From: Candidatus Latescibacterota bacterium
GTDB taxonomy: Bacteria > Latescibacterota > UBA2968 > UBA8231
Assembly (NCBI GenBank): GCA_963422735.1
Contig: OY730476.1
Span: forward strand, 1,440,001 to 1,504,000
Direction: 5' to 3'
DNA length: 64,000 nt
Part shown: positions 24,211 through 25,936 of the stretch, in pieces
How the letters are laid out: every line of letters starts with the position of its first letter
How positions within the stretch are numbered: the stretch's first letter is position 1
The notes under the pieces: model-generated
Told to the model about the DNA's origin: nothing
Databases searched by the model: none
What the model saw: the letters and a program-made list of their open reading frames with translations, nothing else
Program-made: the position numbers and the translations under genes

Positions 24211-25365
24211 CTAAACGTGCGGCAGGCGGCCTTCGAGGCCTCTATAGGGCTGCGGAATGGCGTAGGCCGAGACCAGTTCTCCGTGAGCGACGGCCTCCTG
24301 CCGGCCCGCCTCTATGGCGACCTGCACAGCGCCGACATCGCCGCGGACGACGGCGGCAGTCAAGTAGTACCCCACTTTATAGGCTCCCTCGTATTCGACG
24401 GCCGCGGCCTTGAGCATCCGATCGACGGCCCGCACTAAGGCCACGGTGCTGCGCGTCTCGATCAGCCCCATAGCCTGCCGCGCACCCGGGCCAAGGCCCT
24501 CAGCTGCAGTGGCAAAACGGGCGACTAGCGCGGGATCGGGCCTAGAGACTACGGCCGAGGCGTCGAGCTGCCCCAAGGCCGTAGCGGCCGCGGCACCGGC
24601 GCGCACCGCGACCTGCACATCGTCGAGTTGGCCGGTGGCCAGCACGACAATCCGCCCGCCGCTGCCCATGCTCAAGCGCTCGATTTGGACATCCGCGGCC
24701 TTGAGCATGGCGTCGGCGCTGCCCACGATCGCAGCGTAACCAATGGTCTCTACGAGACCCAAGGCACCAGTGGAGCGCGGCGCGGACGCCGGCGCGGGCG
24801 GCAACAGAGGGCCTAGCCCCTCGCTGGGCTGGGGCAAAACAAGGGTCGCGTACACTGTGCCAATCCGCTCGGCTGCTTGCCGGCCAGCTTCTAGCGCCGT
24901 TTGCACGGCCGCCACATCGCCAAAGACCGGCGCGTGGCACAGAGCACCACCGATGAAGGCCCAGCCCCCTAGTTCCACTTGGGCGGCCTTGAGCATGGCG
25001 TCGGCGCCAGCCACTAGCGGCGTCAGGCCCTGCGTTTCCAACAGGCCAATCGCCTGCGGCTGTACCTGTTCGGCACCGAGGCCGGTTGCGTGGGGCATAG
25101 CATCCACGGCGCGCGCGTCCGGCCGCGGCACCACTTGCGCACCAATTAATTCGCCGGTGCGGTTCGCCTCGACCTCGCCGACGCGAATAGCTACCTCCAC
25201 GTCAGCCACTTGGCCGGCAATTACTGCGGTGAGCCAACCCGAGCCGATGCCGTGCCGACCGCAGAGGCGTATCTCAGCGGCCTTGAGCATGGCGTCGGTG
25301 GAAGCCATTAGCGACGCCATGCCGCACGTCTCCAGCATGCCGATTGCTCCGCTAGACACCGCCAC
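24211..25365 (-). CDS. BMC shell protein with four tandem BMC domains
   Basis: Four repeats of A[IL M]G[ML].ET...D.MLKAA...G..[AD][DA]V..A...G...[RQ]P in 384 aa. Confidence 0.92.
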   Translation of the reverse strand: MAVSSGAIGMLETCGMASLMASTDAMLKAAEIRLCGRHGIGSGWLTAVIAGQVADVEVAIRVGEVEANRTGELIGAQVVPRPDARAVDAMPHATGLGAEQVQPQAIGLLETQGLTPLVAGADAMLKAAQVELGGWAFIGGALCHAPVFGDVAAVQTALEAGRQAAERIGTVYATLVLPQPSEGLGPLLPPAPASAPRSTGALGLVETIGYAAIVGSADAMLKAADVQIERLSMGSGGRIVVLATGQLDDVQVAVRAGAAAATALGQLDASAVVSRPDPALVARFATAAEGLGPGARQAMGLIETRSTVALVRAVDRMLKAAAVEYEGAYKVGYYLTAAVVRGDVGAVQVAIEAGRQEAVAHGELVSAYAIPQPYRGLEGRLPHV

Positions 25366-25936
25366 CCCCTATCGGCACGGCATATGCGGCCAAGACCTCT
25401 GGCCGCGGCTGCGGGATCAGTGCCGTGCTCAGCAAGCGCTCGCAGTCCGCGAGCAGCTTTTGTGCGACGGCTATGGCTTCGGTGACGGCTCCTACGTCCC
25501 CCAAGACCAGCGAACATACCACGCGGTCGTGGACCGTCAGCACGTTGATTACTTCGACGGCAACCGTCTTGACCATCTGATCGTTGGTGTGGATATGGCC
25601 CCCGTAGCCGCGCGTCTCGACCAGCCCCAAGGCACCGGCGGGAAAGTCGCTGTGGGCACGGACCGGAAAATCGACAAAATGGAGGCAGGCGGGAGCGGGT
25701 TGGTGTAGGGACACCGCCATCACGTGTTCTATTACTCCGCGGGCCGCTTCTTCGCCGCTTTGCAGCGCGGCGGCCACATCGCTGATCGACCCGGTAAAAA
25801 AGGCAGTGGTATAACCGCCGATCGACGCCCAACCTGCGAGCTTCACGTCCGCGGCTTTGCAGGCCGCATCTGCACCCACAATAGCGGCAGCCACGCCTTC
25901 CACTTCGATCATGCCGACTGCTGGGAACCCCGCCAT
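25352..25936 (-). CDS. Two-domain BMC shell protein (divergent BMC-T)
   Basis: AVGMIEVEG...DAACKAA and ALGLVETRG...DQMVKTV...GDVGAV...IPQP. Confidence 0.9.
   Translation of the reverse strand: MAGFPAVGMIEVEGVAAAIVGADAACKAADVKLAGWASIGGYTTAFFTGSISDVAAALQSGEEAARGVIEHVMAVSLHQPAPACLHFVDFPVRAHSDFPAGALGLVETRGYGGHIHTNDQMVKTVAVEVINVLTVHDRVVCSLVLGDVGAVTEAIAVAQKLLADCERLLSTALIPQPRPEVLAAYAVPIGGGGV

Follow-up and report, generated by a model that had tools for sequence, protein, structure and literature searches.

Genes and domains at the locus

In the window, that is, the whole stretch of 64,000 nucleotides that was analysed, the genes for two BMC shell proteins, here called Q and D, lie on the reverse strand within the following series:

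20975..21916, reverse strand: second, divergent DHDPS-family protein, 313 aa (PF00701, E 2.2e-10)
21950..23026, reverse strand: FAD-dependent oxidoreductase of the DAO family, encoded downstream of the lyase gene (PF01266, E 1.7e-56)
23027..24196, reverse strand: DHDPS/N-acetylneuraminate-lyase (NAL)-family enzyme, 389 aa (PF00701, E 1.2e-58, from residue 75)
24211..25365, reverse strand: Q, four-domain BMC shell protein, 384 aa from a GTG start (382 aa if from GTG 25359)
25352..25365, reverse strand: overlap between the stop of D (TAG 25354-25352) and the start of Q (GTG 25365 or 25359)
25352..25936, reverse strand: D, two-domain BMC shell protein and proposed partner of Q, 194 aa, ATG start
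25940..26389, reverse strand: Cys-rich protein, 149 aa, without Pfam or NCBIfam match
26394..26657, reverse strand: BMC-H, one domain, 87 aa (PF00936, E 4.8e-27)
26673..27233, reverse strand: conventional tandem BMC protein (T), 186 aa (PF00936 in two stretches, E 1.7e-52)
27270..27944, reverse strand: PduL-type phosphotransacylase (PF06130, E 3.5e-64)
27945..28259, reverse strand: BMC-P vertex protein (PF03319, E 9e-24)
28259..29671, reverse strand: acylating aldehyde dehydrogenase, EutE/PduP type (PRK15398, 648.9 bits against a cut-off of 403; PF00171)

The same-strand run 26394-29671 combines BMC-P, BMC-H, PduL, and an acylating aldehyde dehydrogenase, as is characteristic of a microcompartment locus, and the acylating aldehyde dehydrogenase together with the phosphotransacylase provides the core of a metabolosome. 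Elsewhere, the genome also encodes a BMC-P triplet. The DHDPS/NAL-family lyase, a candidate for the signature enzyme of the microcompartment, has an N-terminal extension of ~75 aa and scores below the cut-off of every NCBIfam model; a homologue with 66-95% identity is encoded downstream of Q in 24 of the 26 loci inspected. Based on NCBIfam, the FAD-dependent oxidoreductase is ThiO-like, again below the cut-off. The first ~50 residues of the Cys-rich protein resemble the N-terminal extension of the lyase (37% identity over 51 aa, E 3e-7; BLASTP), and homologues of this protein are encoded upstream of D in 17 of the 26 loci.

A preliminary description of this DNA had claimed a 384-aa ORF with four complete, non-permuted BMC domains downstream of a 194-aa two-domain gene. 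This domain architecture is established by a Pfam scan, which gave the expected four plus two matches: PF00936 matches Q in four stretches (E 5.9e-76, 250.9 bits) and D in two (E 1.1e-30, 105.9 bits; cut-off 24.5 in both cases). A six-frame search of the genome with PF00936 placed the Q domains at 25120-25347, 24826-25053, 24538-24765, and 24247-24474, and the D domains at 25721-25921 and 25406-25633, each of the six scoring above the cut-off. All are collinear with PF00936 from profile position 1 and, therefore, non-permuted; none of the permuted classes BMC-H(p), BMC-T(sp), and BMC-T(dp) describes Q or D, and their DSSP order is the BMC-H order. BMC-H proteins have one PF00936 domain per chain, unlike Q with four and D with two, and exactly two domains per chain, as in BMC-T(s), are found in D alone and not in Q. 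The edge motif with its lysine recurs in each Q domain (DAMLKAA three times and DRMLKAA once), and the six odd pore loops that had been quoted are all present (GIGSG, FIGGA, MGSGG, and KVGYY in Q; SIGGY and TVHDR in D). The linkers had been put at ~10-15 aa; based on DSSP of the structure models, 23-24 residues, including a short helix, separate the last strand of one domain from the first of the following one, and across all five junctions the domains repeat with a period of 96-99 residues. The source annotations of these proteins are CcmO, EutM, CcmL/EutN, or 'BMC domain-containing protein', and such names flag an annotation gap.

The genes overlap by 14 bp, as first counted, if Q starts at GTG 25365, and by 8 nt if it starts at the in-frame GTG 25359. 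The Shine-Dalgarno-like run GGGGGTGG lies inside the end of D just upstream of the latter start, and we suggest from this arrangement that D and Q are probably translationally coupled. Measured from the D stop, the first possible Q start lies at -19 to +9 nt in 16 of 16 loci, and the D and Q matches are separated by -8 to +36 nt in 80 of 82 genomes. The metatranscriptomic library of run X19 contains a 4400-nt contig from a relative (~92% alike) that spans 25194-26500, including the D/Q junction, along with two further contigs that cover most of Q; in run X8, which is RNA only by guess, an identical 464-nt contig covers 25235-25698. Because contigs from RNA libraries prove neither transcription nor a single transcript, this cover is a hint only, and the uncovered parts in X6, X8, and X19 carry no meaning.

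Conservation and inheritance of Q and D

The four-domain arrangement of Q is far beyond chance. Among the 120 best database clusters for Q, 116 are four-domain proteins and the remaining four are shorter three-domain pieces with 59-94% identity; for D, all 120 best clusters are two-domain. Full-length Q matches without internal stops are present in 82 independent genomes, many of them single-contig, the Q alignment has a mean column identity of 62% with 61 invariant columns, and a contig from a public run spans 23900-26500 without any difference. The recurrence of the ORF in independent assemblies and the complete match of the public-run contig argue against the misassembled fusion that the preliminary description had allowed for. 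It had also named a split of Q homologues into two BMC-T genes as speaking against its reading; such a split was not found in the 26 loci inspected, all of which have one four-domain Q ORF, with D and Q as two genes throughout. Long frames upstream of Q (up to 791 aa) suggested six-domain fusions, and these candidates were rejected: the D gene lies in another frame at 10 of 10 such loci and, therefore, there is no fusion in those 10. Nor do the 150 best matches from 1.84 billion representatives include a six-domain protein.

Of the 168 genomes of the phylum, 82 carry Q, in a single copy and without stops, and 84 carry D. D lies directly upstream of Q on the same strand in 81 of the 82 Q genomes, confirming the expected adjacency; in the single exception, both genes are at contig ends. 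None of the 168 genomes has Q without D, and the two genomes with D only are both fragmented, with D at a contig end. The pair is thus spread over about half of the 168 genomes and over three families. In one of these families (f3), the count of BMC domains is 8 in genomes that carry the pair and 2 in sister genomes without it, and the latter include one inside a genus in which 14 others carry the pair. From these distributions, Q and D appear to be gained and lost as a unit. Because the pair is widespread and stably inherited, we consider it a working solution and not a one-genome curiosity. Two distant complete genomes contain, besides D and Q, no BMC-domain genes except for two that encode single-domain BMC-H proteins, and thus offer Q no two-domain partner other than D. 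The pairwise identities of D and Q correlate with r = 0.99, which we set aside as independent evidence because linked genes of related genomes co-occur and co-diverge anyway.

In BMC proteins, the edge lysine serves tile-tile contacts. The lysines of the edge D-x-x-x-K are invariant in Q (K28, K126, K222, and K319; 52 sequences) and in D (K27 and K123; 53 sequences). The interface motifs given for BMC shell proteins are KAAN and (P/A)RPH (PMC8217296, section 11); their counterparts in Q and D are degenerate (KAAE/Q/D/A; PRPD, PQPS, SRPD, and PQPY). Across the 52 Q and 53 D sequences, the pore loop is conserved and particular to each of the six domain positions, and in a domain tree each position forms one clade with support of 96-100. 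The deep nodes of this tree, which was built on 88 columns, are weak; they group D1 with T1, D2 and Q3 with T2, and Q1 and Q4 with BMC-H, and within these bounds a simple ABABAB origin from a BMC-T trimer is not supported.

A predicted six-domain ring and competing assemblies

The AF2 models of Q (pLDDT 91.2, pTM 0.90) and D (pLDDT 91.1, pTM 0.89) have the BMC fold (beta-alpha-beta-beta-alpha-beta), and the pTM values indicate confident relative placement of the predicted domains. In Foldseek, both models match 6NER and the EutM, PduA, CsoS1, and CcmK chains with a probability of 1.00, and 6NER is the best PDB match, in structure and in sequence, for both Q and D. Neighbouring Q domains superpose on 6NER with TMt 0.86-0.89 and rmsd 2.0-2.9 Å over ~179 columns, and D does so with TMq 0.81-0.83; PduT-type chains superpose with one domain only (TMt 0.39-0.46, rmsd ~15 Å).

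Modelled together, Q and D give a single closed ring in the order D1-D2-Q1-Q2-Q3-Q4, in which D bridges Q4 and Q1. This 1:1 model, which had been proposed as a check, gave ipSAE values of 0.78, 0.77, and 0.78 (best of three controls with unrelated, non-BMC proteins, 0.01). Of solved complexes, 58 of 80 attain this mark, and of mismatched pairs, 2 of 110; because there are many solved BMC hexamers and trimers, Q and D may pass it by mere likeness. For four plus two BMC domains, a closed ring is to be expected, and the ring order is forced by geometry. The model runs share at least 90% of their contacts, with a partner pLDDT of at least 87. The modelled contacts join Q1 to D2 and Q4 to D1 via family-invariant residues, that is, H38 (at least 90% conserved), G41, and W44 of Q with G110, Y111, and R138 of D, and T307 of Q (at least 90%) with T44 of D.

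Based on co-inheritance, the unsplit homologues, and the ring model with its predicted binding, we think it probable that Q and D form a 1:1 heterodimeric pseudohexamer in a metabolosome shell, as the preliminary description had put forward. According to this model, translational coupling of the overlapping genes would yield Q and D in equal amounts, and the two proteins would bind each other 1:1 to give one flat pseudohexameric shell tile with the ring order D1-D2-Q1-Q2-Q3-Q4, like a six-domain chain cut once. Because the inter-tile lysine is kept on all six edges, this tile could occupy the facet place of BMC-H hexamers or BMC-T trimers. The tile would have no rotational symmetry, with six different pore loops and six different edges, and its asymmetric pore may confer a special permeability. 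Residues R37/H38/W44, W135/H144, R238, and K330/Y333 of Q and W36 and H136/R138 of D are predicted to lie at this pore. It would be incorporated into the shell of an aldehyde-processing metabolosome with the acylating aldehyde dehydrogenase, PduL, BMC-P, and BMC-H. By analogy to tandem BMC proteins, which it resembles in fold, D might also form homotrimers.

This fold of D would also suit an arrangement in which D is its own homotrimer like a normal BMC-T and the Q ring is closed by other BMC proteins; every Q genome examined carries at least two BMC-H genes, and BMC domains are interchangeable enough for natural heterohexamers, as reported for CcmK3/CcmK4 (PMC6788708). Two BMC-H protomers (4+1+1) would then serve as fillers or, in genomes that have it, the 186-aa conventional tandem protein. 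We regard such an arrangement as unlikely: it leaves the D-Q linkage in 81 of 82 genomes, the gene overlap, and the joint loss unexplained, and the 186-aa BMC-T is absent from f3 genomes that keep Q and D. Moreover, D1 and D2 lie on very long branches of the domain tree (1.49 and 1.61 changes per column), as expected after leaving the constraint of a standard homotrimer.

Three Q chains have 12 domains (4 x 3 = 2 x 6) and could build two pseudohexamers, stacked face to face or side by side, with D as an independent trimer. Profile comparison reveals an odd/even likeness inside Q (Q1-Q3, 43% identity; Q2-Q4, 48%), as if a tandem unit had been duplicated, and BMC-T(dp) proteins provide a precedent for stacked double trimers (PMC8217296, Introduction). 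However, the Q2-Q3 junction is like the others and no longer (period of 96 vs 97-99 residues), the monomer model positions all four domains with a pTM of 0.90, and the obligate link to D finds no account, all of which makes a Q trimer decidedly improbable. We see just as little chance that Q spans two neighbouring tiles, an alternative already named in the preliminary description, for instance with two domains in each, as a covalent facet staple with D filling the remainder. The edge lysine kept by all four Q domains would fit such a staple; however, the junctions are short and uniform, the modelled neighbouring domains have the within-ring geometry of 6NER, and a staple offers no reason for coupled genes whose domain counts sum to six. 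Finally, repetitive BMC-coding DNA can mislead assemblers, as in an X19 contig in which 24475 is fused to 25893 and one side is just 29 letters long, but the 82 genomes, the database clusters, the public-run contig, and the conserved alignment columns rule out with near certainty that the four-domain ORF is an artefact of assembly or annotation, a decaying fusion, or a pseudogene.

Relation to known shell proteins

Similar to Q and D, the BMC-T(s) proteins (PduT, CcmO, and H. ochraceum BMC-T1) have several non-permuted PF00936 domains per chain and build a hexagonal tile of six domains, and D has the same domain count. BMC-T(s) proteins have two domains and form homotrimers with three-fold symmetry (PMC8217296, Introduction); in contrast, Q has four domains and cannot tile six alone, and the proposed Q-D tile would be a heterodimer of unequal chains without symmetry. 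The best NCBIfam match of Q is the CcmO model with 267.3 bits, just below the cut-off of 270. To our knowledge, all characterised hexagonal shell tiles are symmetric homo-oligomers, either six-fold BMC-H or three-fold BMC-T. A 2021 catalogue of more than 7000 loci recognises no more than five hexagonal building blocks, none of which has more than two domains (PMC8217296, Introduction and section 11). Likewise, no BMC protein with three or four domains was found in the literature searched, which includes text passages of PMC8217296, PMC4207490, PMC8155464, PMC4454575, and PMC8941161, in line with the preliminary description, to whose author no characterised four-domain shell protein was known.

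Three-domain BMC proteins were found in the databases (78 clusters or representatives, 248-345 aa; source names Sumerlaeia and Hydrogenedentota) and, like Q, have more than two PF00936 domains on one chain. Two of them, P0431 and P0434, are 47% identical. No positional orthology of the three-domain proteins to Q and D was detected; six position-specific profiles gave near-tied scores and inconsistent patterns. The 80 loci returned by a metagenome scan (alignment A3), mostly ordinary BMC loci, contain no three-domain ORF. Because three divides six, a three-domain dimer or a paralogue pair could again give six domains. We tentatively speculate that hexagonal tiles might obey a 'domains sum to six' rule that unequal chains also satisfy: Q and D would be a hard-wired asymmetric 4+2 pseudohexamer and the three-domain families would follow a 3+3 pattern, the non-symmetric pore would serve the pathway of the DHDPS/NAL-family lyase, and the six edges would give the tile a defined orientation or position in the facet. 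If this reading is true, then the H / T / P classification of shell proteins is incomplete. The Q-D tile itself, if real, is a kind of shell building block for which we found no description. In such a natural tile, the six pore loops would evolve independently and all six edges would differ, allowing a pore geometry and a facet orientation beyond the reach of symmetric tiles. For shell engineering, it would be a ready-made scaffold in which one pore residue or edge can be changed once per tile.

6NER, a synthetic BMC-H tandem fusion from Haliangium ochraceum, shares with Q and D the head-to-tail BMC-H-like domains at neighbouring ring positions; however, 6NER was engineered, carries the same domain twice, and assembles into trimers, while Q and D are natural, have four plus two domains, and all six domains are different. 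CcmK3 and CcmK4 mix in variable ratios. Their heterohexamers in beta-carboxysomes are a reported natural hexagonal tile made from more than one gene product (PMC6788708; Sommer 2019). Unlike Q and D, these partners are single-domain paralogues, and the proposed Q-D tile would differ from their heterohexamers in having a fixed composition and order via covalent linkage, with a single seam.

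Architecture of the four-domain and two-domain shell proteins

Open reading frames and matches to Pfam and NCBIfam models reveal a single microcompartment locus in the window, all of it on the minus strand.

Genes of the microcompartment locus (window coordinates, strand, product)
28259-29671, minus, acylating aldehyde dehydrogenase (NCBIfam PRK15398, 648.9 bits; cut-off 403)
27945-28259, minus, BMC-P
27270-27944, minus, PduL
26673-27233, minus, T, conventional two-domain BMC protein (186 aa)
26394-26657, minus, BMC-H (87 aa)
25940-26389, minus, Cys-rich protein (149 aa) without family match
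25352-25936, minus, D, two-domain BMC protein (194 aa; PF00936)
24211-25365, minus, Q, four-domain BMC protein (384 aa; PF00936)
23027-24196, minus, DHDPS/N-acetylneuraminate-lyase-family enzyme with an N-terminal extension of ~75 residues
21950-23026, minus, DAO-family flavoenzyme, downstream of the lyase
20975-21916, minus, second, divergent DHDPS-like protein

In a preliminary description, Q and D were proposed to form a 1:1 heterodimer tile with six different BMC domains. As expected from that proposal, Q had four stretches matching PF00936 (E 5.9e-76), and D had two (E 1.1e-30); in a six-frame PF00936 search of the genome, each of the six domains aligned from profile position 1 and is, thus, non-permuted. 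Every edge and pore-loop motif previously described was recovered, as was the 14-nt overlap of the D stop with the Q start when counted from the GTG at 25365; a start at the GTG at 25359 reduces this overlap to 8 nt. Directly upstream of the candidate Q starts at the overlap lies GGGGGTGG. An alternative gene call (P0001, 375 aa) begins at Q residue 10; because relatives have I, V or M at this position and the preceding residues are conserved in them, sequence comparison places the true start upstream of residue 10, within the D gene.

Using Q as the query in a word-indexed protein search, we obtained 1262 matches; four domains are present in 116 of the 120 top-ranking clusters (54-100% identity), and the remaining four clusters are three-domain pieces (285-322 aa, 59-94% identity). 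Likewise, all of the best 120 D clusters (54-96% identity) have two domains. An exhaustive search of 1.84 billion representatives gave 4767 matches at E ≤ 0.001, and no protein with more than four BMC domains was found among the best 150 of these. In all 26 loci inspected (16 from a species-genome collection and 10 picked as the most divergent or for long open frames), D and Q are two genes; neither a split Q nor a fused six-domain reading frame was seen in any of them. Arguing against a misassembly, a contig from a public run, which may be the source sample, spans 23900-26500 without difference. The occurrence of a four-domain protein together with a two-domain protein is, thus, confirmed.

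In the metatranscriptomic run X19, one contig joins 24475 to 25893, omitting 1417 nt and connecting Q domain 4 to D domain 1. One side of this join has only 29 letters, and it most likely represents a junction of similar BMC-coding repeats rather than a real variant. Far from the main locus, the same genome carries a BMC-P gene triplet and two single BMC-H genes (G000:C1:4930449-4931244, C1:3909210-3909437 and C1:725523-725750); this arrangement is reminiscent of the 'FRAG' type, a fragmented layout that includes a BMC-P triplet (PMC8217296). An 870-aa protein encoded at 33087-35699 (minus) has an unusual mix of PD40 beta-propeller repeats, dockerin repeats and a C-terminal FGE-sulfatase (sulfatase-modifying-factor-like) domain, and has no relation to Q and D.

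Q and D are inherited as one unit

Q is present as a single, full-length, stop-free gene in 82 of the 168 genomes surveyed for the phylum and in 17 of 49 genera. By family, it is found in 64/75 (f1), 15/22 (f3) and 2/31 (f4) genomes, and it is present in 14 of the 52 genomes with at least 90% completeness and at most 5% contamination. D is present in 84 of the 168 genomes, and none has Q without D; in the two D-only genomes, whose assemblies are fragmented into 820 and 980 contigs, the D gene is located at the end of a contig. Consistent with the proposed pairing, D immediately precedes Q, in the same orientation, in 81 of the 82 genomes; the gap between matches is 196 nt in one of these and −8 to +36 nt in the other 80. 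The last genome has the two genes at the ends of different contigs.

BMC domains occur in 152 of the 168 genomes, with 8-16 per genome in the presence of the pair versus 1-3 in same-class relatives lacking it (8 versus 2 in family f3). Within one genus (g24), a single genome lacks both genes, and 14 others have both. In two distant complete genomes (Q 55-57% identical), the only BMC domains are the six of D and Q and those of two single-domain BMC-H genes elsewhere; therefore, D is the sole multi-domain companion of Q in these genomes. Altogether, D and Q behave as a single unit with a conserved, co-inherited architecture. Public phylum labels for this clade are inconsistent, with genomes of the same genus recorded as Latescibacterota in some titles and as Gemmatimonadota or Gemmatimonadetes in others.

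Six distinct domain positions and a predicted ring

The lysine of the D-x-x-x-K motif is invariant in all six domains, which fits a tile that would meet a neighbour at every edge, and each position is marked by a distinct, conserved pore loop.

Conserved pore loops by domain (numbered in chain order)
Q1: C-G-R-H-G-I-G-S-G-W
Q2: G-W-A-F-I-G-G-A-L-x-H
Q3: S-I-G-S-G-G-R
Q4: Y-K-V-G-Y-[YF]
D1: G-W-x-S-I-G-G-[FY]-T-T
D2: L-T-V-H-[ND]-R-V-V-C

A domain tree (92 rows, 88 columns; every fourth row per position of two alignments, A1 and A2, plus 12 outgroup domains) gave one clade per position with support of 96-100, arguing that the six positions had already become distinct by the time the family radiated and that they are not interchangeable. 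The deep nodes, which group D1 with T1 (96/85), D2 and Q3 with T2 (96/94), and Q1 and Q4 with BMC-H (94/78), are weakly resolved. Within Q, likeness is highest between odd and between even domains (Q1-Q3, 43%; Q2-Q4, 48%). D1 and D2 both sit on very long branches (1.49 and 1.61), and D may be a fast-evolving duplicate of T, with the caveat that the deep nodes are weak.

AlphaFold2 models computed with family alignments are of high confidence for Q (pLDDT 91.2, pTM 0.90) and D (pLDDT 91.1, pTM 0.89). The predicted domains start at residues 6, 105, 201 and 298 in Q and at residues 6 and 102 in D, giving a repeat period of 96-99 residues at all five junctions, where a short helix of the same kind recurs. 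For both models, the closest PDB structure is 6NER, a synthetic BMC-H tandem fusion whose two domains sit at adjacent ring positions (Q, TMt 0.86-0.89, rmsd 2.0-2.9 Å over ~179 columns; D, TMq 0.81-0.83), while PduT-type chains superpose on just one domain. None of the 63 matched PDB sequences has more than two BMC domains.

Complex prediction on the Q and D alignments gave ipSAE values of 0.78, 0.77 and 0.78, and the highest-scoring of three controls reached 0.01; of solved complexes, 58 of 80 reach the mark used for this score, as do 2 of 110 mismatched pairs. Across runs, at least 90% of contacts agree, and partner pLDDT is at least 87. In the model, domain 1 of Q (residues 8-92) contacts domain 2 of D (110-142) and domain 4 of Q (305-336) contacts domain 1 of D (7-87), so that the ring is predicted to close as D1-D2-Q1-Q2-Q3-Q4, in agreement with the proposed 4+2 tile. 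However, many BMC hexamers and trimers have been solved, a ring is what six BMC domains would be expected to give, and all of the controls were unrelated, non-BMC proteins; therefore, the model must be read with caution. The residues in closest contact are conserved family-wide: Q H38 (at least 90% conserved), G41 and W44 with D G110, Y111 and R138, and Q T307 (at least 90% conserved) with D T44. One further contact is made by G139, in the pore loop of the second Q domain. Together with the conserved Arg, His, Trp and Tyr of the pore loops, this modelled cross-pore contact suggests a narrow or plugged, positively charged pore.

A 4+2 pseudohexamer is the best-supported explanation of Q and D, and we consider it fairly probable. 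In this model, coupled translation would yield equal amounts of both proteins, and D would bind Q at a 1:1 stoichiometry in the cell, occupying the two-domain gap in the four-domain arc. The resulting pseudohexamer would lack symmetry and be incorporated into the shell in facets next to BMC-H, and its pore might have some special permeability.

The associated lyase and comparison with known shell proteins

A DHDPS-family gene, 66-95% identical to the window copy, follows Q in 24 of the 26 loci, making D-Q-lyase the conserved core; in one exception, the contig end leaves no space after Q, and in the other, the DAO gene directly follows Q. At the same evolutionary distance, the lyase retains 66-73% identity versus 46-57% for Q. 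The lyase is likely the signature enzyme of its microcompartment type, one that goes unmentioned in the main text of a 2021 catalogue of microcompartments, where pfam00701 is absent (PMC8217296). The lyase and the 149-aa protein have a common N-terminal module of ~50 residues (37% identity, E 3e-7), without a match to any Pfam or NCBIfam model; we speculate that this module may serve in shell targeting in this type of microcompartment.

The 2021 catalogue describes five hexagonal building blocks, each with one or two domains; the classes it tallies for 19,000 unique shell proteins are limited to BMC-H, H(p), T(s), T(sp) and T(dp), and its main text does not mention multi-domain forms (PMC8217296). 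In the literature searched, we found no description of three- or four-domain BMC proteins, of which supplementary locus tables may hold mention. Natural three-domain BMC proteins do exist outside the window (78 clusters or representatives, 248-345 aa, 28-43% identity to Q; P0254-P0264, the P0256 family and P0390-P0456), with source names including Candidatus Sumerlaeia and Hydrogenedentota; no clear positional orthology links their domains to those of Q or D. Two of these paralogues, P0431 and P0434, are 47% identical, and their longest source contigs are equal in size, a hint of a 3+3 pair.

Q and D have every defining feature of BMC shell proteins, and we assign the pair to neither BMC-H nor any BMC-T class. 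Among known assemblies, it is closest to BMC-T(s) trimers, to the synthetic tandem fusion 6NER and to the CcmK3/CcmK4 heterohexamers (PMC6788708). We conclude that the pair is a new architecture inside a known system.
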